A stretch of DNA of 64,000 bases, from positions 54,606-118,605 of the forward strand of contig JBDRLL010000003.1 of the NCBI GenBank assembly GCA_043813075.1. The letters run 5' to 3'. Of the stretch, positions 4,763-50,559 are shown piece by piece. The notes beneath the pieces were generated by a model, which worked only from the letters and a program-made list of their open reading frames with translations, searched no databases and was not told the DNA's origin. The stretch's first letter is position 1, and every line of letters begins with the position of its first letter. Made by a program: the position numbers and the translations under genes. The DNA comes from Candidatus Altiarchaeota archaeon (lineage in GTDB: Archaea; Altiarchaeota; Altiarchaeia; IMC4; SCGC-AAA252-I15).

Positions 4763-4869
4763 GGAATCAGGGGGTTAAAAAGGCGTTTCTAGAGCAAAGG
4801 AAAAGAAAAAAAACTTTTAAAATATAAGAAAATGTTTTATTATATAAGATAATTTTTTATAGTATAAGG
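4763..4869. promoter_or_regulatory. AT-rich intergenic region: rbcL terminator T-tract plus downstream-gene promoter
   Basis: On the minus strand, a T8 run follows the rbcL stop, and TATA-like ttatatataataaaac elements precede the 4762 start. Confidence 0.4.
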
Positions 4870-6132: not shown

Positions 6133-6187
6133 AAGAAGATAATCGTATGACGGCTATAAAAAAGGCAGCGCTCCCTAAAGTAATCAC

Positions 6188-7330: not shown

Positions 7331-7345
7331 AGCAAAACAATTGCT

Positions 7346-8356: not shown

Positions 8357-8410
8357 AGATGGTGATCGACCTAGACTCAGTTATATTCTGGCACCTAAAT
8401 TATTATCAAG

Positions 8411-9367: not shown

Positions 9368-9368
9368 G

Positions 9369-9959
9369 CTATATCCTGCCCTTTGTCGAGGGTATGTCAT
9401 CGCCCACAATACGCGTCGCTTCCCTCAATGATTTCGCCAGCGCCTTGAAGGTCGCCTCCACCTTGTGATGGTCATTCCTGCCCTCGACTTTAACGTTGAG
9501 GTTGAATCTGCCGTTCAACGCGAAGCTCTCGAGGAAGTGCTCTATATTCTCCTTGCTGACGTCGCCGACACGCTTCTCCTCGAACTCGCTGAACGGAAGG
9601 TCTATGACCGCATACGGTCTGCCTGACAGGTCGACGGAAACCTCTGCTCTCGCATCGTCCATGGGGACTATGGAGTGCGCCATACGGGCTATACCCTTCT
9701 TGTCGCCCAACGCCTTTTGAAATGCTTCACCCAAGCATATGCCCACATCCTCAACTAGATGGTGGTCGTCGACTTCAACATCACCCTTAGCGTCAATCTT
9801 CAAATCGAAGCCGCTGTGCTTGGAGAAGCTCTCGAGCATGTGGCCCAGGAAATTCAATGGCATGTTGACGGCGCTTTTACCGCCGCCATCTACGTTAACC
9901 TCCAGGATTACCTTAGTCTCCCTGGTCTTCCGTGATACAGAAGCTTTCCTCGCGGCCAT
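9369..9959 (-). CDS. hisB: imidazoleglycerol-phosphate dehydratase
   Basis: 196 aa; RETKETKV..VNVDGGG.., DHHLVEDVGICLGEA, GRNDHHKVEATFKALA are hallmark IGPD motifs. Confidence 0.85.
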   Translation of the reverse strand: MAARKASVSRKTRETKVILEVNVDGGGKSAVNMPLNFLGHMLESFSKHSGFDLKIDAKGDVEVDDHHLVEDVGICLGEAFQKALGDKKGIARMAHSIVPMDDARAEVSVDLSGRPYAVIDLPFSEFEEKRVGDVSKENIEHFLESFALNGRFNLNVKVEGRNDHHKVEATFKALAKSLREATRIVGDDIPSTKGRI

Positions 9960-9983
9960 TGTTGATAGGTATTGGTTTTAAGA

Positions 9984-10337
9984 TTAAATATCCTGGCTGG
10001 TGTAAGACGGCTTCATCATCCTGTCTGACTGCTTCTTAAGCCGGTAGAGCGCATTCAACGCGTTGTACGTCTTCCGGGAGAGGAATACTATTACCGTGAA
10101 CGTGACCAGCGACACCAGGAAGAAATGAGTGCTTGCCATGAGATCAGACAATAAGAGTACCAGTATTGTTATGACCAATGCTGTGAAGGCGTCCAAGAGA
10201 CGGGGGTATGCTTCTTTCCTGAATTCCCTCTGGAGGGTCTGGAGGACTATCTTGCGCATCATAGTCATAGATACTCTGATACACGATTTAATAATCAATC
10301 CCCGCGGGCATAAGACGTAATATTTAGGGGTAGTCAA
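9984..10337 (-). CDS. small membrane protein
   Basis: 117 aa with two TM helices. Confidence 0.35.
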   Translation of the reverse strand: MTTPKYYVLCPRGLIIKSCIRVSMTMMRKIVLQTLQREFRKEAYPRLLDAFTALVITILVLLLSDLMASTHFFLVSLVTFTVIVFLSRKTYNALNALYRLKKQSDRMMKPSYTSQDI

Positions 10338-10349
10338 ATATCATTAGAA

Positions 10350-11390
10350 ATGCCCTTAAAACCAGTATTCAGCATCCTGATACCGACTTCCGGAAGGCCG
10401 GAACACCTTAGGGGGTGCGTTGAATCCATTTTCAATGGCGGACACCGGGATTTGGAAGTTCTGGTCCTCGTCAACGAATCCTGCTGGAAGAGCGTGGACT
10501 ACCTTAGGAAGGCTTCCGGGGGTTACACTGGCCTTAAGTATTTTGTGGTTAAGGAGAGGCTGAGCCATGGCGCCGCGAGGAACCGGCTGGTGGACAAGTC
10601 TAGCGGGGATCTGCTGTACTTTATCGACGACGACGTCGTGCAATACGGGAATGCCCTAACCATCCTGGAGGATAAGTTCAGGGAGTATCCATGGGCTGAC
10701 GTCATCGGCGGCCCGAACCTGACTCCAGAATCGTCTAGCAGGCTCCAGAAGTATTTCGGATTCTTCTTTGAATCCTATTTCGGGAGCTCTGGGATGAGGT
10801 ACAGGTATAAGCCGATTGGGTGCGATGTTGAAGCCGATGAGAAGAAGCTGATACTCTGCAACCTGGCGTTCAGGTCGCGAGTCTTCAATGAGATGGGGCT
10901 AAGATTCAATGAGGAGATACCTTCAAACGAGGAGAACATACTCCTGGAGCAGCTCAAGTCAAAGGGGGGTAGGATGCTGTACGTCCCCTCACTTAGGGTC
11001 TACCATCACCGGAGGGATTCGCTCATAGGATTCTGCAGGCAGCTGTTCAAGTACGGGAGGGGTAGGGCCCAGAGTATCGCCCACAATCCGAGAACATTCG
11101 ACCCGGTCTTCATCCTGCCATCAGCATTATTGGCATACATCATTATCTCATTGCCAGCGTCAGGCATCCTCTTCCGAATGCCCTTGGCGGCATACCTCCT
11201 GGCAGACGTTGCCGCTTCACTAATAAAGTCTGTTGGGGAGCGTGACCTGACCGCTGTTCCCGCGCTGATGGTAATCTTCCCGCTGGGACACTTGTCCTAT
11301 GGGATGGGATTCATCTTCCAGTTGGTGAAGACCGCCTTATCGTGGAAAGCAATACATTCAGGAGGGTATGGGGGGCGTCGTCAGAGGTAG
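10350..11390 (+). CDS. family 2 glycosyltransferase with C-terminal TM helices
   Basis: FSILIPTSGRPEHL, LEVLVLVNES and YFIDDDVV (DxD) are typical GT2; hydrophobic C-terminal third. Confidence 0.7.
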   Translation: MPLKPVFSILIPTSGRPEHLRGCVESIFNGGHRDLEVLVLVNESCWKSVDYLRKASGGYTGLKYFVVKERLSHGAARNRLVDKSSGDLLYFIDDDVVQYGNALTILEDKFREYPWADVIGGPNLTPESSSRLQKYFGFFFESYFGSSGMRYRYKPIGCDVEADEKKLILCNLAFRSRVFNEMGLRFNEEIPSNEENILLEQLKSKGGRMLYVPSLRVYHHRRDSLIGFCRQLFKYGRGRAQSIAHNPRTFDPVFILPSALLAYIIISLPASGILFRMPLAAYLLADVAASLIKSVGERDLTAVPALMVIFPLGHLSYGMGFIFQLVKTALSWKAIHSGGYGGRRQR

Positions 11391-12274
11391 CCTGTTAATT
11401 GATCGAAAAGCGTACTGCTGCCTGCGCCAACAAGCTGGACCTTAACCGTAGGGTCCACTGGAAGGGGTTGGGGTATAGAGTCGCTGCCATAGGAGACTTC
11501 AGCGCCAGACTCCCTGCACAAGAGCAGTCCTGCAGCAACGTCATACGTCTTGGGGGTTGCCGCCAGCCCAGCGCCAGCCCTCAAGTCCACAATCAAGTCC
11601 GTCTTCCCTGAAGCGAGGAAGGCCAGTTCGAGTGCAGTCGAGCCATAGCATTTCAGCCATACGTCGTCAACTCCGCTGCCAGTCGCCTCCGCCAGCCTGA
11701 GCATCAAGTCATCGTGTATTCCGTACGCGCCCGCAAAATGACAGCCAATCGAGAGCACCGCATGGGTAAGATCCTTTTTGCCTGAGGCTGTGATTGTCTT
11801 CCCATTAGATCTAGCGGCATCGCCTGCGACAACCGTGTAGTCGTCATCGGTATCTAGGCGGGAGACAACACCTACGGCGACATCTTCCAGCGTCTCAGCT
11901 CCAGGGGGGAACACCGCTATGGAACATGAATATGCTGGAAGCCCGCGCCTCGCATTCCTCGAGCCATCCAACGGGTCTATCAGGTATATCGCCTCGGTGC
12001 CGCCGCCATAATGGAGTATGCCCTGATCCTCAGTCATCACTGTGGCGTTAATCCCATTGTCCTTGAAGAAGCCACCTACCGCCTCCTCCACAGGCACGTC
12101 TATCTCGAACGTCGTGTCGCCCGTCTTGCTGACCGGATGCTGCCGGTCCTCATAGGACCCGACGAGAGGCTCCACCGTCTCCCTGATGATTCCGGACAGT
12201 TCCAGCGAATTCCTCAGGTGATTCCCAACGTCAAAGTCCACTGTAAAAGTATGGTACTGTCTTTTAATCAACAT
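11381..12274 (-). CDS. suhB: inositol monophosphatase / fructose-1,6-bisphosphatase family protein
   Basis: LIDPLDGSRNARRGLP (DPIDGT motif) and a WDxAAG-like region; archaeal IMPase/FBPase family. Confidence 0.75.
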   Translation of the reverse strand: MLIKRQYHTFTVDFDVGNHLRNSLELSGIIRETVEPLVGSYEDRQHPVSKTGDTTFEIDVPVEEAVGGFFKDNGINATVMTEDQGILHYGGGTEAIYLIDPLDGSRNARRGLPAYSCSIAVFPPGAETLEDVAVGVVSRLDTDDDYTVVAGDAARSNGKTITASGKKDLTHAVLSIGCHFAGAYGIHDDLMLRLAEATGSGVDDVWLKCYGSTALELAFLASGKTDLIVDLRAGAGLAATPKTYDVAAGLLLCRESGAEVSYGSDSIPQPLPVDPTVKVQLVGAGSSTLFDQLTGYL

Positions 12275-34713: not shown

Positions 34714-37023
34714 ATGGACTCCGATGCTGAGAGAAGGCTTTTATGGCGGAAGATAGGGCAGAGGGAGAAGCAGAGGCGGAATAACATAGAGGAGATTAAG
34801 AAGATAATACACTCCGGCGACCCCACAGGCAAGAAGAACGCCAAGACTCTGCTGAGGCTTGTGCTGCATGGCGAGGGCATAAAGTCCAGTGAAGCCAGCA
34901 AGATGATAGGTGTGGGCAGGAACGTCATAGACCAGTGGGCTAGACTGCTGGAGGATAAAGGCCTTATAGTAGTGGACGCCCACGGACACCCTGACCCAAA
35001 GCTGATGCCAAGCCAGGAGATTCTGAATAAACTCAACAAATACAAGCAGGAGAAGCTGAACCTGACGCTCGGCGAGGAGATACTCTCCTATGAAAGCGCT
35101 CTGGAGAAGAAGAAGGAGGAGTTGACTAAGGAGCATGAGGAGAAGATAAAGCTGGGGGAGGATTTGGAGAAGATAAAGCTTCAGCTGGCTGAGAAGGAGG
35201 AGGAGCTGAAGAAGGAGCATAGGGAGCGTCTTGACCTGGAGAAGAGGATGGTGGAGATTGAGGGGGATGCTGCCGGCGAATACGATGAGAAGCTAAGGAT
35301 GCTTAGGGAGCAGTTGAACCGTGAGCGCACGGAGCGCATGAAATTCGAGACCTTGATGAAGGAAGAGCATGATAAGCTGCTTGCGGCTGAGGAGGAGAAG
35401 AGGAGGGCGTGCGCTAAGATGGAGGAGGAGCTTATGAAGCGTGAGGCTGAGATACTGGACAGGGAGAAGTCTCTTGAGGAATACGAGGAGCTTGACGCCA
35501 TCTTCGGTGATGACGTGGAAGATAAGAGGATAAGTGACGCGAAGAAGAGCATCGACACCATCAGGGAGAGGATTGGTAAGGTGGGTGAGAAGATTGCTGG
35601 AGTGGATGATGAGTTAGGGCAGGATATACGGAGCATATTCTCTGATGAGGAGGATTTAGCCAGGATACTTGGGGAAGAGCTTGCACTGCTGAAGAGGAGG
35701 ATGGCTGATCTGGAGTCAGCAGGGAAGGGCCTGAAAGCGGATGGTTCAGGAAAGCCGCCGGACGAGAAGCCACCCGCACCACCCACCCCGCCAAAGCCAC
35801 CGGAGCCCGCATTTGGTCTGGATGCGACTGCAACAGCATTATCTGACCGGACTCCGGAAAGTGTGGTTCCAAAAACAGGGAAGCTGAAGCCTCCAGCACC
35901 ACCGACACCGCCAACACCTCCAGGACCGCCTGAGCCAGTGGATGAGGGCAAGGCCGTGGCGGAGCTGAAGACAGAAGCCGTTGCAGAGAAGAGGGAGACT
36001 ATAAAACCAACAGCAACGCCTGCGGCAGCAAAACCAGATGCGCCCACACCAAGGCAAACCACACCCCCATCACAGACTACGCCATCAACAGCAGCATCAG
36101 AGCCGACGGCCGCACCACCGGCAAAAACAAAGGTAACCCCACAATCGCCGGCACCAACACAGGAAAAAACAACAATACAAAAGCCGCCAGTGATCACTAG
36201 AACGCATACTACAGCACAGACACATCCTACCACAACGCCCGCAGGGCAGGTGACTGCGCCGACAACGCAGGCAAGAACACCAATCACTCCGCCAACATCG
36301 CCGACACCAACACAGGAAAAACCAACAACCAGTCAGCCGTCACATATCAATCAAAAAACGCCGGCAGAGCAGGGTACACCAGATGAAGAGCCGAGTGGAA
36401 AACAAGCAGAGGGAAAAACGCCGGCAACACAGGCAGGACCTCCAGAACCTCCTGGAAAACCAGGAGGAAAAGAGGAGGCTCAAGCAAAGCCGGAAAAGCG
36501 TATAGCCAGCATGGAGGAGATGAGGAAGGCTCTTGAAGAGCCGGAAGAAGAGGGAGGAATCGTTTTAAAACCCCCCAGACCACCCTCCAATGAAGAAGAG
36601 CATCCCCATGAGATACCGCTGCCCCCTGAGACAGAGGAGAAAATGATGGAAGACGAGGAGCCGGTGCGCAGGATAGCGAGCATCGAGGAGATGCGGAAGA
36701 TATTCATAGATGATAAGGAAGACGAAAAAGCGAAGGAAGAGGAGAAAAAACTCGGAGTCGACATCGAAAACCTGATCGAACTGCTGGAAAACAAGAAGAT
36801 AATCAAGATTAATGATGCTTCTAAAGCCATAGGCGTGAACGATAACACCATAAGGATATGGGCCAACAGGCTGCAGGAGAAGGGTGTGGTGACGGTAAAG
36901 AAGCATTTGATGAGGGAGGATGAGATACTGCTGAACCCGTACGTGAACACCAAGGAGATAATAGAAGCGCATGAGGCAGAGCGGATAAGGGAAGAGATTA
37001 AAAAACTGCATAAGGAACAATAA
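34714..37023 (+). CDS. large coiled-coil protein with Pro/Thr-rich low-complexity core and HTH-like modules at both ends
   Basis: 769 aa; N-terminus (MIGVGRNVIDQWARLLEDKGLIVV) and C-terminus (AIGVNDNTIRIWANRLQEKGVVTV) share a motif; long E/K-rich heptad region; ~250 aa of PPxPTPP / TTPxQT repeats; internal repeat IAS(M/I)EEMRK. Confidence 0.5.
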   Translation: MDSDAERRLLWRKIGQREKQRRNNIEEIKKIIHSGDPTGKKNAKTLLRLVLHGEGIKSSEASKMIGVGRNVIDQWARLLEDKGLIVVDAHGHPDPKLMPSQEILNKLNKYKQEKLNLTLGEEILSYESALEKKKEELTKEHEEKIKLGEDLEKIKLQLAEKEEELKKEHRERLDLEKRMVEIEGDAAGEYDEKLRMLREQLNRERTERMKFETLMKEEHDKLLAAEEEKRRACAKMEEELMKREAEILDREKSLEEYEELDAIFGDDVEDKRISDAKKSIDTIRERIGKVGEKIAGVDDELGQDIRSIFSDEEDLARILGEELALLKRRMADLESAGKGLKADGSGKPPDEKPPAPPTPPKPPEPAFGLDATATALSDRTPESVVPKTGKLKPPAPPTPPTPPGPPEPVDEGKAVAELKTEAVAEKRETIKPTATPAAAKPDAPTPRQTTPPSQTTPSTAASEPTAAPPAKTKVTPQSPAPTQEKTTIQKPPVITRTHTTAQTHPTTTPAGQVTAPTTQARTPITPPTSPTPTQEKPTTSQPSHINQKTPAEQGTPDEEPSGKQAEGKTPATQAGPPEPPGKPGGKEEAQAKPEKRIASMEEMRKALEEPEEEGGIVLKPPRPPSNEEEHPHEIPLPPETEEKMMEDEEPVRRIASIEEMRKIFIDDKEDEKAKEEEKKLGVDIENLIELLENKKIIKINDASKAIGVNDNTIRIWANRLQEKGVVTVKKHLMREDEILLNPYVNTKEIIEAHEAERIREEIKKLHKEQ

Positions 37024-37024
37024 G

Positions 37025-38344
37025 ATGGGTTCATGCACGCTGATACTAAACTACGGGAGATGCGGTTGGGGTTCATGCCTCTTCTGCGGCTATGGAAGGT
37101 CATCGGGCAGGAAGCCTGACGTCGACGCATTAAAGAGGGAATTCGACGACTTCTTCGGAAAGATGGGGGAGGACGCGGAAGAAGTGAAGGTGTTCAGTTC
37201 CGGAAGCTTCTTGGACGACAGGCAGATACCGGCGGAAGCCAGGAGACACTTCATAGGGAAATGCATGGAGAAGGATATAAGGAGGGTGACTATAGAATCC
37301 CGCCCGGAATACGTCACAAAAGAAAAGCTCGAAGAATTCGAGGGGGTGAAGGTCACCCTGGCGATAGGATTAGAGTCCGCGGACAACCAGGTTCTTGAAA
37401 GGATAAACAAGGGATTCAGGAGGGAGGACTATGAGAGGGCTGCGGACATTGTGAAAAAGTCAGGGGGTGATGTTAGGACATATCTGCTCGTGAACCCGCC
37501 ATACGTGAAGGATGTCTGTAAGAGCGTGGATGATTCCGTTGAATACGCGTTAAAACACTCTGACAGCATAGTCCTGATAAACCTCCTCCCACACAGTAAC
37601 GCGCCGCTATTCAAGAAATGGGTTGCAGGAGAATGGAGCTTCCTAGATAGGAGAGGATTCGATGAGGCGACAGCCCGGTGGGCTGACAACCCTAAAATCG
37701 AACTGGATTATGAGACATTCAAGTTCACGCCGCAATTCCCAGACCATATGAAGACGCCGATAAATGGCGTTGGGGAGGAGTATCTGACACACCCCTATTT
37801 CGAGGCCTGGCAGGACTATCTGGACAGGTTCTACCAGCCGTCTGAACGGAAGAAGACGCTGCTCCTCCTACCATGCAGCTACAGGAAACCGTACAGCGAG
37901 TCAAAGACCCACAAGGAGATAATAGGGGTTATCGGGGAAATCGGCGGGAGAGACCGCATACACGAAGTCATGCTCAGTAATGCGGGAGTCATACCAAGAG
38001 AATTCGAGGACAGATACCCCTTCAACGCATACGATTGGGATGAGAGCCTGGAGACGCCGGAGATAAGGAAGAGGTATGTGCAAGTCACGTCAGAGAGAAT
38101 AGCCAACTATTTAAGAGCGCACGGAAAAAGATATGACAGGAAGGCCTGCTACCTCCGGAGAGCGTCGGACTCCCATCAGGCAGTCGAGAAGGCGTTCAAA
38201 GAGCTTGGTATGGAATTCGACAACCTGCTTTCCCCAGAAACCGACGGCAAACTAGATGGCGGGACAAGCGGCCTTAGGAAGCCGGAAGCGCTAGATGATT
38301 TGAGGGAGGGTTTAAGACGGCTACTGCAAAATTCCACGCGATAG
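37025..38344 (+). CDS. fusion protein: RaSEA-like radical SAM domain + ArcS-type C-terminal (PC-X3-KPY-X2-S-X2-H) domain; archaeosine biosynthesis
   Basis: N-terminus CGWGSCLFCGYG with a radical-SAM/TIM-like region; C-terminus LLLLPCSYRKPYSESKTH matches the ArcS signature motif. Confidence 0.55.
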   Translation: MGSCTLILNYGRCGWGSCLFCGYGRSSGRKPDVDALKREFDDFFGKMGEDAEEVKVFSSGSFLDDRQIPAEARRHFIGKCMEKDIRRVTIESRPEYVTKEKLEEFEGVKVTLAIGLESADNQVLERINKGFRREDYERAADIVKKSGGDVRTYLLVNPPYVKDVCKSVDDSVEYALKHSDSIVLINLLPHSNAPLFKKWVAGEWSFLDRRGFDEATARWADNPKIELDYETFKFTPQFPDHMKTPINGVGEEYLTHPYFEAWQDYLDRFYQPSERKKTLLLLPCSYRKPYSESKTHKEIIGVIGEIGGRDRIHEVMLSNAGVIPREFEDRYPFNAYDWDESLETPEIRKRYVQVTSERIANYLRAHGKRYDRKACYLRRASDSHQAVEKAFKELGMEFDNLLSPETDGKLDGGTSGLRKPEALDDLREGLRRLLQNSTR

Positions 38345-41144: not shown

Positions 41145-42611
41145 TCACACTGAATTATCCACGCCCTTAGACGGCTTAAATAGCAGGATAATGCGCAATA
41201 CGCGCAATAGAGGCTTCATCAAGGCATGGAACATTCTTGTTCTCCCGAACAGGAGGTGGGCTTTACCGCCGATTATCGCACGGTTTATCATCTTCCTGCC
41301 CACCGGGTTTTCATAGCTTGTCGCCAGGTTCTTCCTGAATATCCGCTTGTTGGACATACGTAGTACTTCTTCCGCTTTCTCTGTGTCGAAGCCTACCTTA
41401 CAGACGTATGACATGTGATCCCAGTAATCCAGGTCTGTTATGCCGACTTTCCCTTCCTCAAGGAATTCGTCCATAAGCCTGCCGTGGGGGGTGAACTTCT
41501 GGTAGACCACCATGCTGGGATTCACTTCGTCCATGAAGTCTGTCTTCTCGACTATCGAATCCATTGATTCCAGGGGAGAGCCGACTATCATGGAGGCTAT
41601 GACAAACACCCCGTTTTCAATCAGTATTGAGAACACCTCCTTGACTCGCAAGGCATCGTATCTCTTGCCGTAGTATCCCATTATCTCCTCGTTAACGTCC
41701 TCAATGCCGAAGAGTATGGCCTTCACCCCAGCCTCGCGAGCTAGGGGTATCAGGTCAGGGTGGCTTATGAACGTGTCGACCCTCGCCTGGATGCTCGCGT
41801 TGATATCCAGCTTCCGCTCTGAAATGAGTTGCAGCAGCCGCCTGGTCTTGGAGACGTCGCCGAAGAAGTTGTCGTCAGCGAACATCAGGTTTTTCACACC
41901 CATGCTCCGGGCATAGTATTCGATGTCTTCAGCCATGCGTTCGGGACTCCTTGTCCTGTATGGTGTGAAGAAGTCTTTTGAGGAGCAGAACAGGCATTTG
42001 TGGGGGCACCCCCGGGACCAGTCGACCAGTAGGAATGGTTTTTCACACCATACGAAGTCGTAGTCATTGACGTCTATCAGCCTGAAGTCCGGGCGGGGCA
42101 GGTCATCCAAGTCAACCGTATCCTGTCTCCCAGAGTATCTGACCGCGCCGTCCTCCAGATAGTAGACCCCCTTAACCAGGGAGACTGGCTTGCCTGAATC
42201 GATCGAGTCCACGAGGCTCTTGAAGACAAAGTCTCCCTCGCCGGAGACTATGTAGTCCATAACCCGGCCCTTGAGTAGTGATTCGAAGTCCCGGTCCCTG
42301 AAGAAGATGTAGCTGCCTCCTGCGACAATAACCATGGTGTCGTCGAGCTCACGCAACTCCCTTAAGAGCTTTAGTGATTTAGTGTATGAAACGGTGTGAA
42401 GCAGGCTTATGCCCAGCACCTGAGGCTTGAACTCCCTCACCGCGTCGAACAGGATGCTGTCACCGCAAGCAGTCAAGTCTATAAGACGCACTTCATGGTC
42501 AGGCTCAAGGATTGCGGCGATATACAGCAACCCTAGGGGCATCGCATTACCCAGAACTGATTCGACGTTAGAGTCGGGATTGACAAGTAAAACCCTCATC
42601 CTGGATAACAA
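41145..42611 (-). CDS. B12-binding domain radical SAM protein (class B), paralog 1
   Basis: N-terminal B12-binding Rossmann (RVLLVNP...MVIVAGG..YIVSGEGD) followed by SRGCPHKCLFC (CX3CX2C). Confidence 0.8.
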   Translation of the reverse strand: MLSRMRVLLVNPDSNVESVLGNAMPLGLLYIAAILEPDHEVRLIDLTACGDSILFDAVREFKPQVLGISLLHTVSYTKSLKLLRELRELDDTMVIVAGGSYIFFRDRDFESLLKGRVMDYIVSGEGDFVFKSLVDSIDSGKPVSLVKGVYYLEDGAVRYSGRQDTVDLDDLPRPDFRLIDVNDYDFVWCEKPFLLVDWSRGCPHKCLFCSSKDFFTPYRTRSPERMAEDIEYYARSMGVKNLMFADDNFFGDVSKTRRLLQLISERKLDINASIQARVDTFISHPDLIPLAREAGVKAILFGIEDVNEEIMGYYGKRYDALRVKEVFSILIENGVFVIASMIVGSPLESMDSIVEKTDFMDEVNPSMVVYQKFTPHGRLMDEFLEEGKVGITDLDYWDHMSYVCKVGFDTEKAEEVLRMSNKRIFRKNLATSYENPVGRKMINRAIIGGKAHLLFGRTRMFHALMKPLLRVLRIILLFKPSKGVDNSV

Positions 42612-44087
42612 TTATACTTTATCAAGGTATAAGCGCCTGGCCGCCCCCCATAATCTCCATTCCACAGGATGGTTGAAGTACCTCCGCCGCCACCTGGCTT
42701 CAGCTGAAATATTGAAGAGGTAGTGGAATACATCGTATGCAGCCACCATAAGACTGCTTCCCCCAAGCCACGCCTTCTTCACCTCCGGACCCCTGGAGGC
42801 CAGCCGCTCATGGAAGTGGGTGAAGCGGACTATGTTTGATATCGTATCCAACTGGGACTGGGCTTCCATGCTCATCCAGGGGAGACGCACGGAGTCGAAC
42901 CTCCATCCACCCCATTCTTCCAGGGAACCATGCACCATCATGCCCTGGGAGACCGCGGTTTCATGGATGGGCGTGCCAGGCTGGGGTATGAGCATCCATA
43001 GGTTACATACCTCCGTCCTAGGGTTCAGCCTCCTGAGCTCGTCCACCAGGCTGAGGGTCTTGGACAGGTCTCCTGGAGTCTCATCAGGCCAGCCGATGAT
43101 GAAGCTCACCATTGGCGTTATCCCATAGTCCCCGCACTTTCGGACAGAATCAGTTATCTGGCTGACTGTGATACCCTTCCCAATCCCGTCAAGTATCCTC
43201 TGGGAGCCTGACTCAGCGCCGAAAAACAGCGTCTCGCATCCGCTATCCCCCAGGAGTCTGGTGAACTCATCATCGTATCCGGAGAAATAGTCAGCCCTAT
43301 TATAGGCCATCCACTTCACGTCCCACCCCTCCCGTATTATCGCCGAGCAGATGCTCCGCATCCTCTCCTTGTCGACAAAGGAGTTGTCCTCCTGGAAGGT
43401 TATGCTGTTTGCGCCGACTTCTTCTATTATGTTCCTTAGCTCCTCCACCACAACCTCGGGTTTCTTCGCCCTCCAGCCGCCCTTGCTGTAGCAGTGGTTA
43501 AAGCAGAACGTGCAGTTGTGGGGGCATCCCCTGCTGGACTGGTAGGAGAAGTATTCCCTGCAGTCGATGTATTTACGCAAGTCCACCAGATCGTAGTGGA
43601 GGCTGCCTATGGCGTTCATGTCCGTGAAACCCCTCGGTGGGGTTGAGACGACAACCCCGTCTTTCTTGAATGCGATTCCGTTGACATCCTTTAGCGGACC
43701 CTCATCCCTGACAGTGTTGGCAAGCTCTATGATGGTTTCCTCGCCGTCACCACTGACGGCGATGTCGACGAGACTGCTGGCCGCAGTCTGCTCCGGCAGC
43801 ATCGTGGCGTGGGGCCCGCCCCATACTATCGGGATGTTTGGGTCTTCCTCGCGTATCATGCCTGCGACAGCGAGGCCGTGGCTTATCTGCGGCCCTGTCA
43901 TGGATGTTATGCCTGCCAGAAGATACTCGCCGTCGAGATGCTTGAGGTCTTGAATCCGTGTGTCCACGATTTTCGGGTCGTAACCAGCATTCCGGAGGAC
44001 TGTTCCAAGGTTTAGGAGCGGGAGCGGCATGTAGGGCGCCCTCTCTTTTTTTCCAGGGTATATCAGGAGTATTTTATCTGTCGCCAT
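42612..44087 (-). CDS. B12-binding domain radical SAM protein (class B), paralog 2
   Basis: DKILLIYPG..IVWGGPHATM..IAVSGDGE B12-binding domain, SSRGCPHNCTFC radical SAM; the start is moved to the internal MATDK Met (residue 44 of the ORF); contiguous with paralog 1. Confidence 0.8.
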   Translation of the reverse strand: MATDKILLIYPGKKERAPYMPLPLLNLGTVLRNAGYDPKIVDTRIQDLKHLDGEYLLAGITSMTGPQISHGLAVAGMIREEDPNIPIVWGGPHATMLPEQTAASSLVDIAVSGDGEETIIELANTVRDEGPLKDVNGIAFKKDGVVVSTPPRGFTDMNAIGSLHYDLVDLRKYIDCREYFSYQSSRGCPHNCTFCFNHCYSKGGWRAKKPEVVVEELRNIIEEVGANSITFQEDNSFVDKERMRSICSAIIREGWDVKWMAYNRADYFSGYDDEFTRLLGDSGCETLFFGAESGSQRILDGIGKGITVSQITDSVRKCGDYGITPMVSFIIGWPDETPGDLSKTLSLVDELRRLNPRTEVCNLWMLIPQPGTPIHETAVSQGMMVHGSLEEWGGWRFDSVRLPWMSMEAQSQLDTISNIVRFTHFHERLASRGPEVKKAWLGGSSLMVAAYDVFHYLFNISAEARWRRRYFNHPVEWRLWGAARRLYLDKV

Positions 44088-44127
44088 GCTTAATGTTTGA
44101 TGATTATTACAAGAGTACCATATAAAG
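44088..44127. promoter_or_regulatory. short divergent promoter region between B12-rSAM operon (minus) and Tes-like rSAM (plus)
   Basis: 40-nt AT-rich spacer (ttattacaagagtaccatataaag) between divergent starts. Confidence 0.35.
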
Positions 44128-45468
44128 ATGGAGTTGGGGAAAAGCAGGAGCCTCTGTCCCATATGCCTGAAGGAGATTGACGCGAGCATAATCCAGGATG
44201 ATGGGAGGGTGTTCATCTCTAGGGAGTGCGCTGCGCATGGATTGTTTGTTGACCCACACCTCTACGAGGATCCGGTCATATACAAGGCGCTCTCCAACAT
44301 GGACTGCGGCGGGGATGACGTCCTACCGGACACTCTAGTGTTCCACACTACACCAGCATGCAACATGGACTGCCAGTTCTGCCCTATACCAGGCGAGATG
44401 AGGTCTGGTGAAGGCCCTGAGATAGGTGAGATTATGGATGAGGTCTCCAGATTCCATGGGTCTACCATATTCCTGTGCGGGGGAGAGCCGACCATAAGGG
44501 GGGATTTGCCGGAGATAGTCGGGAAAATCTCAGGTGCAGGGAAGAATGTGCTGGTCTTCACCAACGGACTGAGACTAGCGGACAGGAAAAACGTGGATTC
44601 CCTCAAGGCCACAGGCCTGACCCAGGTCATACTCTCGTTCAGCACGTTTCAAGAGGAGAAGGACATTAAAGTCTACGGCTCCCGCGTCACTTCATTGAAG
44701 CTGAAGGCCTTGGAGAACCTGAAGGCCACGCTGACCCCGACCGGCTTCTCATTCCTAGTATTCAAGGACATTAACGAAGACGAGGTGGATAAGGTGATCG
44801 GATACGCGGTAGACAACCGGGAGTGGGTCAAGAGCATATGCTTTCAGGTGGTCTGGAGGCCTTCCGAAAGGGACTCCAGCATGGTGAAGCAGAAGGGGAT
44901 AATAGACCTTGTGCGAAAATCCGCTGGAATTGATGTTGAAGACTTCATAGAATGCACTGTCTTCGGCAGCACTGTGTCTGAGATTTTCAGGAGGATTACG
45001 GGCAGGGGTGGGCGCGTGTATTCCAGGTGCGAGCTAAGATGCCAGTCATGGGTGTCAGATGGACGACTTGTGCCATTATCCGGGATGATTGATTTGAAGA
45101 CTGTGAACGAATCGCTACGGAGAATTAACAGCCGCCTCAAGGGGTCAGCAGCCCGGAAGATTGGTGTGATGATCTTGTTTTTCCCTTACACAGAATTATT
45201 GAAGTCGTTCATATTCAACAGGGACTTCAGAAACTTCTGCCTTAGCAGGTTTTCAGGCATGCTCTCAGGTATAGTGCACGGCAGGATGTTCCGCGAGTCG
45301 TTGGGGAAGGACATGCTCGGATTCATGGTGGGGAGATATTATACCAGGTACAACATCGACTTGGGGTTGGCGGATACTTGCAGGTACTGCAGGTCTCCTG
45401 AGGGAAACGACATCTCATACTGCATATGCGATATGATAGGGTGGACTGAGAACAAGCAGACTGCTTGA
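44128..45468 (+). CDS. radical SAM protein, Tes/GDGT-MAS-like candidate (paralog A) with N-terminal Cys/His knuckle
   Basis: CPICLKEIDA...ECAAHG N-terminal motif; PACNMDCQFC (CX3CX2C); GGEPT glycine motif; ~445 aa. Confidence 0.55.
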   Translation: MELGKSRSLCPICLKEIDASIIQDDGRVFISRECAAHGLFVDPHLYEDPVIYKALSNMDCGGDDVLPDTLVFHTTPACNMDCQFCPIPGEMRSGEGPEIGEIMDEVSRFHGSTIFLCGGEPTIRGDLPEIVGKISGAGKNVLVFTNGLRLADRKNVDSLKATGLTQVILSFSTFQEEKDIKVYGSRVTSLKLKALENLKATLTPTGFSFLVFKDINEDEVDKVIGYAVDNREWVKSICFQVVWRPSERDSSMVKQKGIIDLVRKSAGIDVEDFIECTVFGSTVSEIFRRITGRGGRVYSRCELRCQSWVSDGRLVPLSGMIDLKTVNESLRRINSRLKGSAARKIGVMILFFPYTELLKSFIFNRDFRNFCLSRFSGMLSGIVHGRMFRESLGKDMLGFMVGRYYTRYNIDLGLADTCRYCRSPEGNDISYCICDMIGWTENKQTA

Positions 45469-45490
45469 TGAGCCGCTTGGTCCTGGTGAG

Positions 45491-46828
45491 TCATGGATTA
45501 TCTGATTCCCGCGACCGGAACACTTCCCTAAGGCAGAACGGAACGACTCTATCTCCCTCAAAGCCTCCGAGACTGCAGCAGGACATGAATTCATAATCCA
45601 CGTTTGACGCGTCAAAATACCTGTTAGCTATTATACTGCACACCTGAGGCAGCATCATTGTTATCGGATGGTCATTTTCCGCAATGATCTTCCATAATCC
45701 GGATGCGCTCGGCAGCATGAACAATATTGCGCGCGCGTCTCTGACGCTAGAGAGGAATGCGAGGATAGTCTTCACTAGGGCGCCTGCTTTCCCTGCTTTT
45801 CCATTGAAGTCTGTGCTAACGCTTATCTTGGATAGCCTTTCTGAGAGTGCCTGCATGTCCAGCAGATGGTTTAAAGGCGTTAGAGAATCCCCCATACGGA
45901 CTAGGTATAGCCGTAGGTAGCATGCTGAAACCCGCCTACCACCCCTCCCAGACATCTTTCGCATAAGCTGGCTGAAGCAGAAGCCGAACCTGGTGCACTC
46001 GAGGAAGTCTTCCAAGCAGGTTCCCAGATGCATGCATACCAGATCAGCGGACTTGCTTGCAGGCACTGAACGCCCCGCGTCATTCCCATTTGGATTCCAG
46101 TAGGATGAGAAAGCTAAACCCCTTATCCTACCCCTATGACGCCTCAAAAGTTCTATGAAGCCTGGAACCTGGTCCTCGTTTACGCCGTCCCGTAGGACAA
46201 CATTCAGGAAGACTGGTATGTCTAGTTGAAGTAGGTTTTTTAACGCCCCCATCTTCTTCCCGACCACTTCCTCGCCGTATAGCCGGATGCCCTGACCAGC
46301 ATCCAGTGTGTCCAATGAGAGCACTATCAGTGGCTTGTTTCTTGAGAATGAACTGGCATAATCCATGCTGCCCAGCCTAATCCCGTTGGTGAAGAATGAG
46401 GGATGATATCCCATAGACCTTAATTCACCTATTATCCCCGGCAGGTCGTCGCGCATGGTAGGCTCCCCGCCGAACAAGTATATTATGGAGCCGCCGAACC
46501 CAGCGGCAGTGGAGACTAATTCTTCCAGAGATATCGGATGTTCTTCCACCATGCCTTGAGGCTTAAAGCAGTCTGGGCAGTTCATGTTGCATAATCCGGT
46601 GACATCCAGAAAAGCAGTGTCCGGAGACCATTCACCGTCTTCAGGGTCGATGGCCAGGAGTGACTTCATTGACGCGTAGACTTGCTTGTCTTGGAAAACG
46701 TGCGGGCTCACTGAAGTGCCATGCTCCGGGCATTCCTGCCTTATGAACATTCTCCCGCCATCCTCGAAGACCGTTGCATCAACATCCCTCAAGCACTTCG
46801 GACAGATGCTCCGTGAATTTGATTCCAA
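45491..46828 (-). CDS. radical SAM protein, paralog B of 44128-45468
   Basis: CPKCLRDVDA...ECPEHG; GLCNMNCPDC (CX3CX2C); GGEPT; collinear similarity to paralogs A and C. Confidence 0.55.
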   Translation of the reverse strand: MESNSRSICPKCLRDVDATVFEDGGRMFIRQECPEHGTSVSPHVFQDKQVYASMKSLLAIDPEDGEWSPDTAFLDVTGLCNMNCPDCFKPQGMVEEHPISLEELVSTAAGFGGSIIYLFGGEPTMRDDLPGIIGELRSMGYHPSFFTNGIRLGSMDYASSFSRNKPLIVLSLDTLDAGQGIRLYGEEVVGKKMGALKNLLQLDIPVFLNVVLRDGVNEDQVPGFIELLRRHRGRIRGLAFSSYWNPNGNDAGRSVPASKSADLVCMHLGTCLEDFLECTRFGFCFSQLMRKMSGRGGRRVSACYLRLYLVRMGDSLTPLNHLLDMQALSERLSKISVSTDFNGKAGKAGALVKTILAFLSSVRDARAILFMLPSASGLWKIIAENDHPITMMLPQVCSIIANRYFDASNVDYEFMSCCSLGGFEGDRVVPFCLREVFRSRESDNP

Positions 46829-46940
46829 AAAAACCCCTCAAACACAGATTATGAGACAGGCAAGATATATTATTGTTAAGTTCTGATATTCAATAATATC
46901 AAGGGTGTACGCTAGTGCAAAGAATTTCCGAATGGTTTGA

Positions 46941-48605
46941 ATGAAAATCAGGTTGAGCTGCTTTAATCCGTTCTCATATAGCATAACCCCCCTCGGACTG
47001 GGATACAAAAACGCTTCCCACAACAACGCTGGACACGACTCTATGATACGCCTTTTTGAACGGGAGGAGTCAGCGTTCTACGACACACTGCTGTCGATGG
47101 ACTTTCTTGGGAAGAGATTCCCGCTAATATCGATACCAGAATACATACAACAGATCGAACTGGTGGAGAATGAAGTTTTCGCAGAGGAGCTCGGCTTCAT
47201 AGACAGGGGGGAGATGAACTACAGGTCCAGATTCCCCTCTGAAACAGAGAGGCTGGTTGGGATATGCGACTCCATAGCGGACAGCCTGTCAGGCAACAGT
47301 ATGGTGGGATTCAACATAACGTCAATAGCCATGGGACCGACACTATACATCTCGAAGGCAATTAGGGAGAGGGATGATGGCGTGAAGATAGTGTATGGGG
47401 GGCCGATAACAGACATGATGGCTGGAGTTTTAGACCCCATAAACGCCATGCACAAGTCCATCAACGAGTCAATGAGGAGTAGCGGCATATACGGGAGGTA
47501 CGCTGATTTTCTGGCTGGGAACGTCGACTTCCTGGTTCACGGTGAGGGTGAGGAGACTATTGTGGAAATTGCTAATGCGATTGATGATGGAGGTGACGCG
47601 GAGATACCGGGGACTACCGCCATCAGGGAGGGGTCTTTCAAGAGGAGTCGCCCTAGGAGGCCTGTTGACTTGGATGGGATATGCCGTCCAGACTTTGATG
47701 GCATAGACATGAGGACGTACGGGTATGTCACGTTCAACTTCTCCAGGGGTTGTATTAACGCGTGCACGTTCTGTGACGAGTGCCTGTTCTTCAAGGGCTA
47801 CAGAGTCAGGGATCCGGCAAAGGTTTTGGAGGAGTTGAGCGCCGGCTCAGAGAGATATCCTGGTAAAAGGTTTCTCGCGTGCGACAGCCTGCTGAACGGA
47901 GACCCTGCGAGGCTGAAGGAGCTCTGCAGGCTGATTACTGAGTCAGGGCTGCGTATAGACTGGAGCGGATACCTGCGGCTGCCTGAGACGGACGAGGAAC
48001 TAGTAGACCTGCTCTATGAGTCCGGTTTCAGGAGGCCGAAATTCGGTTTAGAGACCATCGACGATGGGGTCTATGAGGAGGTTGGCAAGCGGCAGGAGAC
48101 CGGTCACGCGCTTAGGATCATGGACTACTGCAGGAGGAAGGGCATGAAGGTGACCGCGAACTTCATGATCGGGTATCCGGGGAGGGGAATGGACTTCGAG
48201 CTGGAGGTGATGGATAGGGTTAAGGGCATACGAGGGCACTATGATTACATGCCGCTTGAATCGATAAACGTGGGTATAAGGTCGAGTGTCGCGAGCGACC
48301 CTGAGAGGTGGGGTTTCGAGATAAAAAGCACCCATGAATTCAGTGAGAGTGACTGGGAGTATTATACACTGGCAAGGTCGTATATCCCGGGAATCATAAC
48401 GTACACGAGGAATTCGCTGTCACGAAGCGAGGCTGAGAGGATATTCGAGGAATACAACAGGCACGGTCTTCTCAACAAGAGGGGGTTGGAGTATGGACTC
48501 CACAAGTATGGATTAGGATGGCTGAAAAAGTATAGGCGGTATATTCCGTTCAGCATATCCAACTGGCTTAAGCTCCAGTATCTTAAGGAGGAGATAATCA
48601 TTTGA
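46941..48605 (+). CDS. B12-binding domain radical SAM protein (class B), paralog 3
   Basis: KIVYGGP..LVHGEGEE B12-binding-like N-terminus; FSRGCINACTFC radical SAM core. Confidence 0.75.
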   Translation: MKIRLSCFNPFSYSITPLGLGYKNASHNNAGHDSMIRLFEREESAFYDTLLSMDFLGKRFPLISIPEYIQQIELVENEVFAEELGFIDRGEMNYRSRFPSETERLVGICDSIADSLSGNSMVGFNITSIAMGPTLYISKAIRERDDGVKIVYGGPITDMMAGVLDPINAMHKSINESMRSSGIYGRYADFLAGNVDFLVHGEGEETIVEIANAIDDGGDAEIPGTTAIREGSFKRSRPRRPVDLDGICRPDFDGIDMRTYGYVTFNFSRGCINACTFCDECLFFKGYRVRDPAKVLEELSAGSERYPGKRFLACDSLLNGDPARLKELCRLITESGLRIDWSGYLRLPETDEELVDLLYESGFRRPKFGLETIDDGVYEEVGKRQETGHALRIMDYCRRKGMKVTANFMIGYPGRGMDFELEVMDRVKGIRGHYDYMPLESINVGIRSSVASDPERWGFEIKSTHEFSESDWEYYTLARSYIPGIITYTRNSLSRSEAERIFEEYNRHGLLNKRGLEYGLHKYGLGWLKKYRRYIPFSISNWLKLQYLKEEIII

Positions 48606-49222
48606 CACATAGGGGAGAGCTTACCGGAGAATTGCCTGAACCCGACTGGGATGCGGTCTGGGGCAGGAATTTAGGCAAGAATCTGACGGTATTTAGGGTA
48701 TACTCTGGGCTCAGGTTCAGAAGCTATAGAAGACTGTTCAGTGGACTGGACCTGGAGGGTAGGGGGGTGCTGGAGATAGGGGGTGGGACAGGACAGTTAG
48801 GCAGCATGCTTGGGAGGGAATTCAAGTGCAATGTAACACTGATAGACGATAGTGAAGAGGCTTTCAGATTCCACTCCAGATTCGGCATAAAAGGGGTGGA
48901 TTATGTGAGGGGGGATGTCTTCAGGCATGAGGGAGTCTACCATCTAGTCTACAGTGACGGGCTTATAGAACACTACAGGGGCGCTAAGAGGGAGGATCTG
49001 ATACGGCGTCATTCCCTGTTATGCGGTGAGGGGGGTTACACCGCCTTTTTTGTGCCAAAAAAATCGTTTTTCGTTGACATGTTCCTCACACTCAGGGGCT
49101 ATTACGAGGAGAAGTACGACGTGGATGGCATCACTTCAGAGCTGGAGGAGAATGGCCTTGAGGTCCTCAAGACTGTGGAGGATTTCCATATGATAGGTGT
49201 GTTATGCGAGCAGAGGGGATAG
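48602..49222 (+). CDS. class I SAM-dependent methyltransferase
   Basis: VLEIGGGTGQLG (motif I), LIDDSEE (acidic motif II); overlaps both neighbours, so it is operonic. Confidence 0.65.
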   Translation: MTHRGELTGELPEPDWDAVWGRNLGKNLTVFRVYSGLRFRSYRRLFSGLDLEGRGVLEIGGGTGQLGSMLGREFKCNVTLIDDSEEAFRFHSRFGIKGVDYVRGDVFRHEGVYHLVYSDGLIEHYRGAKREDLIRRHSLLCGEGGYTAFFVPKKSFFVDMFLTLRGYYEEKYDVDGITSELEENGLEVLKTVEDFHMIGVLCEQRG

Positions 49223-50559
49223 CCTTTGAGGCAAGGACTAGGAGCCTCTGCCCAGTTTGCCTCAAGCAGGTGGACGCGAGCGTAAGGATTATTGAGGGTA
49301 AGGTCAGCATCAGCAAGGAATGCGACAAGCATGGCTCCTTCGAGTCGCCGCATTTTTGGGGTGATGAAGTGCTTTATCACGCGATGAAGAGGATAGCGGA
49401 CATGTGTGATGACGGGGTACCCCCGGACAACCTCGGGTTGTATCTCACACAGAAGTGCGATTTGAGTTGCAGCTACTGTTATCTGAAGGATAATGAGGAG
49501 GGGATGGAAGAGCCGAGCATAAGCGATGTCTTAGATTATGTGTCCGGATTTAAGGGGTCGACTGTCATACTAAGCGGGGGGGAGCCGACACTCAGGGACG
49601 ACCTGCCTGAGATAATCAAGGTGGTGCGGGAGAGAGGATACATGATTGTGCTCGCGACAAATGGCATGAGGCTTTCGAGAGAATACGTGGAAGACCTGAA
49701 GTCATGCGGTTTGGGCATGGTGATGCTGTCTTTCACGACCTTTAAGGAGGAATACTCAGAGAGACTGCAGGGCATCAACACTGTCGAGGCTAAGAGAAGC
49801 GCTGTAAGAAACCTTAATGACGCATGCATCCCATTGTTCCTCTACATTCCTGTTTTGAGGGGGGTGAACGACAGTGAGATAGGCGCATTCATAGATTACG
49901 CCAAATCCGTGAATGCGGTGAGGGCGGTTGACTTCAATGTGACAACACACCCAGGAGGATTCTCAGACAAGCTGACGCTCACACAGAAGGAGATTATCGA
50001 CGTGATAGGAGAGCATACTGGCGTTGGCGTTGAGGACTTTACGGACTGCACGTTATCCGTGCACCTTGCATCAGAGGCATTAAGGAAGGTATTAGGTGGT
50101 GGGAGGAGGAGTTCAGGATGTTATCTGAGACTATACTTCCTCAGGTCAGGGGAGGTCTTAAGTCCAGTGAGCGGGATTCTGGACTTGAAGTATGTTAACA
50201 TGAGGCTTCTATCAGCCAACGCTATCCTTGACTCGAAATCACCGCTCAGGAGAATCAAGGCGTTGAGCATCATCGCGGGATTGTTCCTATCAACCGCTTG
50301 GCGGAATCAGGAGGGGATGATGCTTTGTTCAAGTGTTGTCAGAAGCATTGCCTCCAGGAGAGGTGGCTCGTCTGCTGGCGGCGGATTACTATGCATTAAT
50401 GTTATGCGATTCAACGACCGCTTCAACGCTGACCTTGGTTTCACTCGGGCATGCTGCTCGCACAGCATCAGGAATGCTTCAGAGAAGCCAATGTGCGCGT
50501 GCATTAGGGAAATGTATTTCTGCAGGCCGCCTGTCTTTAAGAAAAGGAATCTAAAGTAG
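49204..50559 (+). CDS. radical SAM protein, paralog C of 44128-45468
   Basis: CPVCLKQVDA...ECDKHG; TQKCDLSCSYC (CX3CX2C); SGGEPT; ~450 aa. Confidence 0.55.
   Translation: MRAEGIAFEARTRSLCPVCLKQVDASVRIIEGKVSISKECDKHGSFESPHFWGDEVLYHAMKRIADMCDDGVPPDNLGLYLTQKCDLSCSYCYLKDNEEGMEEPSISDVLDYVSGFKGSTVILSGGEPTLRDDLPEIIKVVRERGYMIVLATNGMRLSREYVEDLKSCGLGMVMLSFTTFKEEYSERLQGINTVEAKRSAVRNLNDACIPLFLYIPVLRGVNDSEIGAFIDYAKSVNAVRAVDFNVTTHPGGFSDKLTLTQKEIIDVIGEHTGVGVEDFTDCTLSVHLASEALRKVLGGGRRSSGCYLRLYFLRSGEVLSPVSGILDLKYVNMRLLSANAILDSKSPLRRIKALSIIAGLFLSTAWRNQEGMMLCSSVVRSIASRRGGSSAGGGLLCINVMRFNDRFNADLGFTRACCSHSIRNASEKPMCACIREMYFCRPPVFKKRNLK

Follow-up and report, generated by a model that had tools for sequence, protein, structure and literature searches.

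A fusion of RaSEA and ArcS catalytic cores in Altiarchaeota and DPANN archaea: a probable minimal archaeosine synthase

The window analyzed in this study is a 64-kb stretch of DNA (64,000 nucleotides) of a Candidatus Altiarchaeota archaeon (GenBank assembly GCA_043813075.1, contig JBDRLL010000003.1, positions 54,606 to 118,605 of the forward strand). It contains a gene whose predicted product joins, in a single chain of 439 aa, the core of a RaSEA-type radical S-adenosylmethionine (SAM) enzyme and the C1 domain of the archaeosine synthase ArcS. In Thermococcus kodakarensis these activities reside in two proteins: ArcS transfers lysine to preQ0 at position 15 of tRNA, yielding preQ0-Lys, which RaSEA then converts to archaeosine (G+) (PMC11298593). 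The features of the fusion gene, including their position, strand and the basis of their assignment, are as follows.

37025-38344, + strand: RaSEA-core/ArcS-C1 fusion gene, an intact 439-aa open reading frame (ORF), stop codon included (ORF list)
37031-37639, + strand: radical-SAM domain, aa 3-205, corresponding to the core of RaSEA, the archaeosine synthase beta subunit (TIGR01210, hhalign, Foldseek)
37061-37087, + strand: CX4CX2C motif of the [4Fe-4S]/SAM cluster (C13, C18, C21), CGWGSCLFCG from residue 13 (sequence)
37640-37744, + strand: bridging segment between the catalytic domains, aa 206-240 (conservation, predicted local distance difference test (pLDDT), hhalign)
37745-38317, + strand: ArcS C1/DUF5591 domain, aa ~241-431 (Pfam, NCBIfam, hhalign, PDB 2q07, phage ArcS2 model)
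37871-37912, + strand: ArcS signature PC-X3-KPY-X2-S-X2-H, PCSYRKPYSESKTH, aa 283-296 (sequence)

The ATG codon of the fusion gene lies 1 nt past the stop codon of the upstream gene, which encodes a 769-aa protein (described below), and the fusion protein is 100% identical to P0001, an NCBI protein encoded on a 189,956-bp contig of a metagenome-assembled genome (MAG) of Candidatus Altiarchaeota. An earlier note, prepared from the nucleotide sequence alone, had described this ORF as a RaSEA-like radical-SAM domain with a CGWGSCLFCG Cys triad, fused to an ArcS-type domain with an exact copy of the ArcS signature. Both motifs are present, in the N-terminal and C-terminal half, respectively, and the two profiles named beforehand as the refuting test of this description, TIGR01210 and DUF5591, both match the polypeptide.

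The N-terminal half matches the Pfam Radical_SAM profile over aa 12-161 (53.7 bits; cutoff 29.5) and the NCBIfam RaSEA profile TIGR01210 over aa 3-179, corresponding to profile positions 15-202 of 313 (140.2 bits). RaSEA is by far the best radical-SAM family for this half, the second-best being TIGR01212 with 35.1 bits. Comparison by hhalign with 30 stand-alone RaSEAs (probability 100%, E 6.6e-49) aligned aa 3-205 of the fusion with residues 27-236 of the 333-aa protein P0161, which itself reaches 357.7 bits with TIGR01210. Besides the Cys triad, the invariant radical-SAM core motifs of the fusion family are SGS (59-61), ESRP (91-94) and GLE (115-117).

The fusion lacks the N-terminal ~25 and the C-terminal ~100 residues of RaSEA, the alignment stopping at about residue 236 of 333. 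The stand-alone RaSEAs (alignment A3, n=30) carry a conserved C-terminal HNCGxCD...CxC module, with C309 and C311 of P0161 nearly invariant. This module, which may bind a metal or a cluster or serve in docking, was not found in the fusion family, whose only invariant Cys residues are C13, C18, C21 and C284. The loss of the Cys-rich tail of RaSEA is a feature that the earlier note had missed.

The solved structure nearest to the N-terminal half, as found by Foldseek searches of the PDB, is that of queuine lyase (6p78), an enzyme of bacterial queuosine salvage with a compact CX4CX2C core of ~230-250 aa. The match spans 234 columns, comprising essentially all of 6p78, with a TM-score (normalised to the target) of 0.71; the cores of Elp3 and viperin were also paired with this half. 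Queuine lyase acts on the free queuine base, a 7-deazaguanine, in which it cleaves a C-N bond of the 7-substituent. It differs from the fusion in having no C1 partner, and its sequence identity with the N-terminal half is ~21% (24.5 bits), the latter being far closer to RaSEA. Since queuine lyase is a core-only enzyme of ~250 aa, a radical-SAM core without the C-terminal module of RaSEA can be catalytically complete.

The C-terminal half comprises a complete ArcS C1 domain. C1 (DUF5591) is the catalytic core of ArcS, and proteins consisting of C1 alone occur in some archaea and phages (PMC10516641). The half matches Pfam DUF5591 over aa 262-397 (69 bits; cutoff 26) and the NCBIfam ArcS profile NF040592 over aa 235-397, corresponding to profile positions 254-408 of 575 (70.8 bits). 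Alignment by hhalign with stand-alone DUF5591 proteins of ~210 aa (probability 100%, E 1.9e-61) extends to the C-termini of the latter, so that the fusion contains the complete ~200-aa domain, including its C-terminal helices. The PC-X3-KPY-X2-S-X2-H motif, defined as C1-specific (PMC10516641), has a single match in the six-frame translation of the window, i.e. the one within the fusion, and was absent from 200 shuffled versions of the window.

Structural searches led to the same assignment. Foldseek paired the C-terminal half with AF0587 of the PDB (2q07), the only solved DUF5591 protein, which is composed of DUF5591 and PUA. Among viral models the half superposes on ArcS2 of Vibrio phage nt-1 (R9TEI9) with a TM-score normalised to the target of 0.72 (rmsd, root-mean-square deviation, 2.5 Å) and also matches a 170-aa protein with 35% identity; for the stand-alone DUF5591/ArcS2 proteins the values range from 0.72 to 0.78, normalised in the same way. 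Unlike the fusion, these proteins are not joined to a radical-SAM domain.

The note had also stated that the fusion is devoid of the transglycosylase and PUA body of ArcS, and Pfam and NCBIfam scans bear this out. No Pfam match to the tRNA-guanine transglycosylase (TGT) domain (PF01702), TGT_C2 or PUA was obtained in the fusion at E ≤ 1, and the protein ends ~40 residues past DUF5591. The same scan detected C2 and PUA in the arcTGTs encoded next to some of the orthologs and in protein P0159 (see below).

Two side observations concern the C-terminal domain. Many relatives end, after the last helix, in a conserved ...(N/D)ST(R/S) tail (LLQNSTR, LRNST, LQDST; 38318-38341 in the window), which is missing from other members of the family, and pLDDT falls in this region. 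Precomputed Pfam lists assign DUF5591 to three arcTGT proteins (P0314, P0388 and P0390). Of these, P0314 and P0390 were scanned, and their candidacy as arcTGT-ArcS hybrids ("TGT + DUF5591") was rejected, as they are ordinary arcTGTs (TIGR00432, 495-641 bits). Counts of ArcS based on Pfam DUF5591 alone call for caution, because this profile also matches the C1 domain of arcTGT itself.

The two catalytic domains are connected by a bridging segment that lies outside the RaSEA profile and is covered only loosely by stand-alone C1 proteins. T231, F234 and P236 of the bridge are invariant, and L207, F212, D228, E230, F232, F238 and P239 are nearly so. In the AlphaFold2 model (built from a 108-sequence alignment; mean pLDDT 95.6, predicted template modelling score 0.89) the bridge contains one helix and one strand with pLDDT of 92-97, and is ordered rather than a floppy linker; no low-confidence linker is present in the model. 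The prediction indicates that the two domains are held in a fixed relative arrangement, as one rigid body. Sequence and profile searches of the PDB identified no solved RaSEA, full-length ArcS or ArcS-RaSEA complex.

A HMMER search of 1.84 billion cluster representatives revealed a compact family of full-length relatives (E 1e-124 to 1e-71), below which the scores drop to ~125-135 bits for stand-alone DUF5591 proteins and to ~100 bits for stand-alone RaSEAs. Separately, a comparison of the fusion with database clusters formed at 90% identity gave 525 matching clusters. The best 120 of these all contain proteins of ~430 aa, almost all with both Pfam domains, and their named members are Altiarchaeota, Altiarchaeales or Altiarchaeia. 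The sequences are thus already public, under automatic and inconsistent names: JGI sometimes labels them "archaeosine synthase (alpha-subunit)", while NCBI uses "DUF5591 domain-containing protein" or "radical SAM protein". No relatives of the fusion were found in a scan of viral contigs.

A scan of GTDB (one genome per species), performed with patterns derived from the C-terminal half of the fusion family, revealed 57 loci, mostly of Altiarchaeota. The loci of this phylum, including those of SM1-type genomes of Ca. Altiarchaeum/Altarchaeum, encode proteins with 47-61% identity. Ten more divergent loci (40-46% identity) come from MAGs whose labels, which can be wrong, read Iainarchaeum, Diapherotrites, Woesearchaeota, Parvarchaeota, Micrarchaeota, Nanoarchaeia or simply "archaeon". 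The natural fusion that the note had pictured as an informative variant is therefore real; it is not peculiar to the source genome, and belongs to a large family found in Altiarchaeota and several DPANN lineages.

The catalytic residues of both halves are invariant in a full-length alignment of 108 homologs. Within the ArcS signature C284, K288, P289, Y290, S293, T295 and H296 are invariant and P283 is conserved in at least 90% of the sequences, while C13, C18 and C21 are invariant in alignments A1, A2 and A5. The catalytic residues are also invariant in the ten DPANN orthologs, with the exception of R93, replaced in L046 and L041. As the residues of both halves are retained across the family and its DPANN orthologs, both activities appear to be under selection, and, judged by this conservation, the fusion gene is clearly functional.

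The telling genomic context is that of the divergent loci. In five of the ten (L046, L047, L050, L051 and L057) a TGT gene encoding 544-558 aa is arranged head-to-head with that of the fusion. The TGT gene of L057, for example, runs from 9784 to 8135 (- strand) and the fusion gene from 9995 to 11248 (+ strand); in L047 one gene lies between the two. The TGT proteins of L046 and L051 are arcTGTs according to NCBIfam and Pfam (TIGR00432, 414.7 and 406.2 bits, respectively, cutoff 350; TGT, TGT_C2 and PUA domains). Those of L047, L050 and L057 were assigned to arcTGT on the basis of common motifs and of phmmer scores of 429-457 bits against the L046 protein. Since these five loci adjoin the gene of arcTGT, the enzyme that supplies the substrate of ArcS, the fusion family is tied, through its DPANN orthologs, to archaeosine of tRNA, and the assignment to the archaeosine pathway made in the note gains independent support. 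The arcTGT-linked loci carry RNase J and GluRS genes downstream. The DPANN loci without TGT contain closely linked genes for a DUF655 protein and a malate/lactate dehydrogenase, as well as unannotated ORFs, and are uninformative.

We also identified other natural pairings of the C1 and RaSEA modules. P0155 (680 aa) is a fusion in the reverse order, with DUF5591 preceding a full-length RaSEA. Upstream of its gene, at a distance of 16 nt within the region 4855-10501 of loci L059/L060, there is a divergent 376-aa TGT-family gene, whose product scores 97 bits with the arcTGT model and 30 bits with that of DpdA. P0159, a 497-aa fragment, contains ArcS C1-C2-PUA followed by RaSEA. P0121 has the same domain order as the fusion of Altiarchaeota, with an additional insertion of ~200 aa. 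A split pair is encoded in locus L058 (JGI metagenome 3300033141, 4364-11628), where the gene of P0154 (544 aa), composed of an unknown N-terminal domain and a RaSEA-like radical-SAM domain, is directly followed by that of P0150, a stand-alone DUF5591 protein of 208 aa.

P0155 and P0159 thus have the same two modules covalently joined, and P0155 is likewise encoded beside a TGT-family gene. They differ from the fusion in the order of the modules, in the lineages in which they occur and in the retained parts, namely the C-terminal module of RaSEA in P0155 and the C2 and PUA domains of ArcS in P0159. From these sequences it looks as if fusion or adjacency of C1 and RaSEA arose several times, in both orders, the reverse fusions resembling independent events. 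This recurrence suggests that C1 and RaSEA are two parts of one enzyme.

Two of these loci are of interest in their own right. Beyond P0155 there are two unannotated genes (392 and 382 aa), and the locus also has neighbours related to resistance-nodulation-division (RND) efflux and molybdopterin. These neighbours suggest a bacterial host, and the locus, which is probably bacterial, may be a G+-type system for modifying nucleic acids outside Archaea that is as yet uncharacterised. In L058, the gene of P0150 is accompanied by genes for (i) a SPASM radical-SAM protein, (ii) a chlorohydrolase/guanine-deaminase-like amidohydrolase, (iii) a B12-type radical-SAM protein, (iv) a NUDIX protein and (v) a queuosine-precursor transporter (TIGR00697, 169 bits). 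This has the appearance of an uncharacterised cluster for 7-deazaguanine salvage or tailoring.

The system most similar to the fusion is ArcS-RaSEA of T. kodakarensis (Yokogawa et al. 2019, as summarised in PMC11298593). The two share the C1/DUF5591 signature and the TIGR01210-type CX4CX2C core. The modules are obligately associated in both, the association being covalent, and known from sequence, in the fusion. The known complex is linked with arcTGT through arcTGT-dependent G+15, and for the fusion a link with arcTGT was seen in the five DPANN-type loci. The differences lie in architecture and distribution. The fusion is one chain of 439 aa with the RaSEA core preceding C1, whereas ArcS and RaSEA are two proteins of ~575 and ~330 aa; it lacks the N-terminal TGT-like, C2 and PUA domains of ArcS and both terminal parts of RaSEA, and it is found in Altiarchaeota and DPANN, while the two-protein system occurs in classical Euryarchaeota. 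The fusion represents neither a new chemistry nor a new kind of system, but a widespread, uncharacterised variant of ArcS-RaSEA. We found no description of a RaSEA-ArcS-C1 fusion in the searchable literature, although the founding paper (Yokogawa et al. 2019) may mention fused forms.

On the basis of the domain identities, the conservation of the catalytic residues, the rigid model, the distribution of the family and the adjacency of arcTGT in DPANN loci, we consider it likely that the fusion is a minimal single-chain archaeosine synthase, which combines the activities of ArcS (alpha) and RaSEA (beta) as joined catalytic cores. A separately encoded arcTGT, which the note had placed elsewhere in the genome, would insert preQ0 (7-cyano-7-deazaguanine) at position 15 of tRNA. 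The C1 domain (Cys284, Lys288, Tyr290, Ser293, His296) would then attach free L-lysine to the nitrile through its epsilon-amino group, with preQ0-Lys as the product, and the radical-SAM domain, using SAM and the 4Fe-4S cluster bound by C13, C18 and C21, would cut the C-N bond of lysine to leave the formamidine group of G+. The lysine intermediate and, in Altiarchaeota, the substrate at G15 of tRNA are the steps we infer.

The covalent tether would take the place of non-covalent subunit docking, and this may explain why RaSEA could lose its Cys-rich C-terminal module and ArcS its TGT-like, C2 and PUA domains. In the known system ArcS is inactive without the RaSEA complex and is not bound by ArcTGT (PMC11298593). 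Moreover, ArcS accepts preQ0 nucleoside 5′-monophosphate and the L-shape of tRNA is not essential (PMC11298593), which makes the loss of PUA plausible.

Several observations weigh against this proposal. The fusion scores below the equivalog cutoffs of both families: 140.2 bits against 212.15 for TIGR01210, and 70.8 and 69.6 bits with the ArcS models NF040592 and NF053620, whose cutoffs are 440 or 600 bits. Its C-terminal half is nearer to stand-alone DUF5591 proteins than to full-length ArcS, and the Pfam scan revealed no recognisable RNA-binding domain in the protein. No gene for TGT, PUA, QueC, QueD or QueE is present in the 64-kb window, and neither arcTGT nor a preQ0-synthesis gene was found within 10 kb of the fusion in ~45 loci of Altiarchaeota. 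A search with the DPANN arcTGT returned labelled matches from Aenigmarchaeota, Nanoarchaeota, DPANN or Thermoplasmata, and the unlabelled ones that were looked up belong to Aenigmarchaeota. In addition, phage ArcS2 acts in a DNA-modification setting, and yields deoxyarchaeosine (dG+) in Escherichia coli without RaSEA (PMC10516641). By the curated models the fusion is a canonical member of neither the ArcS nor the RaSEA family, and the catalytic hallmarks of both are present.

A more far-reaching form of the proposal, which we regard as doubtful, is that Altiarchaeota and many DPANN archaea have no archaeosine synthase other than the fusion, and that it operates although it has no domain for binding RNA. 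Its mode of action would be either docking on arcTGT, with direct transfer of the preQ0-tRNA, or activity on preQ0 nucleotides wherever they are accessible. If this were true, the fusion would define the minimal catalytic unit of G+ formation, and its active site would be a composite one, located between the C1 and radical-SAM domains. The parts it lacks, namely PUA, C2 and the TGT-like domain in ArcS and the Cys-rich tail in RaSEA, would be dispensable accessories. The shared fusion would also be a rare genomic change, and hence a marker joining Altiarchaeota with DPANN lineages.

Among the alternatives, the one that survives best, improbable as we judge it, is that the same nitrile-to-amidine chemistry takes place off tRNA. 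The substrate would be free preQ0, as base, nucleoside or nucleotide, in a salvage or tailoring role, or else the preQ0 of DNA, as with the stand-alone DUF5591 (ArcS2) proteins of phages and bacteria. The missing PUA or other RNA-binding domain, the end-to-end alignment of the C-terminal half with stand-alone DUF5591 proteins and its superposition on ArcS2 of phage nt-1 would all fit this role, as would the nucleoside-level substrates taken by ArcS of T. kodakarensis (PMC11298593). The clustering of the P0154 and P0150 genes with those of a queuosine-precursor transporter, a NUDIX protein and an amidohydrolase likewise suggests small-molecule 7-deazaguanine chemistry. However, the phage forms of ArcS2 work with DpdA on DNA, whereas the transglycosylase linked with the DPANN orthologs is not DpdA but a tRNA-type arcTGT (with C2 and PUA, and above the TgtA equivalog cutoff). 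Furthermore, no viral contig carries the fusion, and its neighbours in Altiarchaeota have housekeeping functions and include no dpd-like, restriction or transporter genes.

Slightly less probable again is a mechanism in which no lysine adduct is formed and C1 uses ammonia or glutamine to make the amidine directly, while the radical-SAM domain performs another reaction (e.g. modification of G+ or of a neighbouring nucleotide). For ArcS of Methanocaldococcus jannaschii, the use of NH4+, Asn or Gln has been reported (cited in PMC11298593), and the radical-SAM part of the fusion is below the RaSEA cutoff and without the C-terminal module of that family. The dG+ formed by ArcS2 of phage nt-1 in E. 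coli, which has no RaSEA, is in line with such a reaction, but the yield in this RaSEA-free setting was very low, i.e. 4-7 dG+ per million nucleotides (PMC10516641). The likeness of the N-terminal half is specifically to RaSEA (140 vs 35 bits; hhalign E 6.6e-49), and the fact that C1 and RaSEA-type modules are independently fused or adjacent in other lineages argues for a coupled two-step reaction. Finally, a coincidental likeness, or a decaying or chimeric, misassembled gene without function, for which nothing but the sub-threshold equivalog scores could be cited, is refuted, leaving a negligible probability, by the intact ORF, by more than 500 homologous clusters of the same architecture from many independent assemblies, by motifs that stay invariant at 40-68% overall identity, by the confident structure prediction and by the absence of the signature from the 200 shuffles.

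All ORFs of at least 80 aa in the window were annotated by Pfam scans. The window is an ordinary archaeal chromosome region, with genes for tRNA-intron endonuclease, primase, form III RuBisCO, histidine and purine biosynthesis, Trm5/Taw2, a MiaB-like enzyme, HerA, Hef, PCNA and class I LysRS, and several other radical-SAM genes. Canonical ArcS and RaSEA genes are absent from the 64 kb, and no tRNA genes were found in them. The RuBisCO large subunit gene (4870-6132, - strand) is of form III type (RuBisCO_large, 329 bits), in agreement with reports on carbon and nucleotide-salvage metabolism in Altiarchaeota and DPANN.

The gene immediately upstream of the fusion (34714-37023, + strand) encodes the 769-aa protein mentioned above and is possibly co-transcribed with the fusion gene. 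In addition to weak helix-turn-helix matches at its two termini, the protein contains a region rich in Glu and Lys that is probably a coiled coil, and its long middle part is rich in Pro and Thr. A homolog is present in the fetched stretch of 35 of the 57 loci. In the window and in L001, the only loci where its position was checked, it lies directly upstream of the fusion gene. Among the neighbours kept in Altiarchaeota are this helix-turn-helix/low-complexity protein (35 loci), HisA/F (27) and Hef (22), as well as TatD, an AIRS-like protein and an aminotransferase IV. We considered these neighbours as a possible pathway operon and rejected this, as they are housekeeping genes whose retention reflects lineage synteny.

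Five radical-SAM genes are clustered at 41145-50559, a density which, just downstream of the fusion, is unusual. According to the Pfam scan they are as follows.

41145-42599, - strand: B12-binding radical-SAM gene
42612-44216, - strand: B12-binding radical-SAM gene
45491-46750, - strand: radical-SAM gene
46941-48605, + strand: radical-SAM gene
49204-50559, + strand: radical-SAM gene with an HMPTM-type zinc ribbon

The fusion provides independent support, of the Rosetta-stone type, for the 2019 finding that ArcS and RaSEA act as one enzyme, a pairing that fusion has made permanent on several occasions, in either domain order. It also points to which parts of canonical ArcS and RaSEA are probably accessory. 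A structure of the ArcS-RaSEA complex has been explicitly called for (PMC11298593). A single chain of 50 kDa that models as a rigid body is an attractive minimal target for crystallography, cryo-electron microscopy and mechanistic work, and the predicted interface of its domains is a testable model of the docking of the alpha and beta subunits.

Taken together, our analysis makes the fusion the probable G+ synthase of Altiarchaeota and DPANN. If this is true, a function would be assigned to a protein that is inconsistently annotated in hundreds of genomes of these archaea, and a step would be filled in the reconstructions of tRNA modification in uncultivated Altiarchaeota and DPANN lineages.

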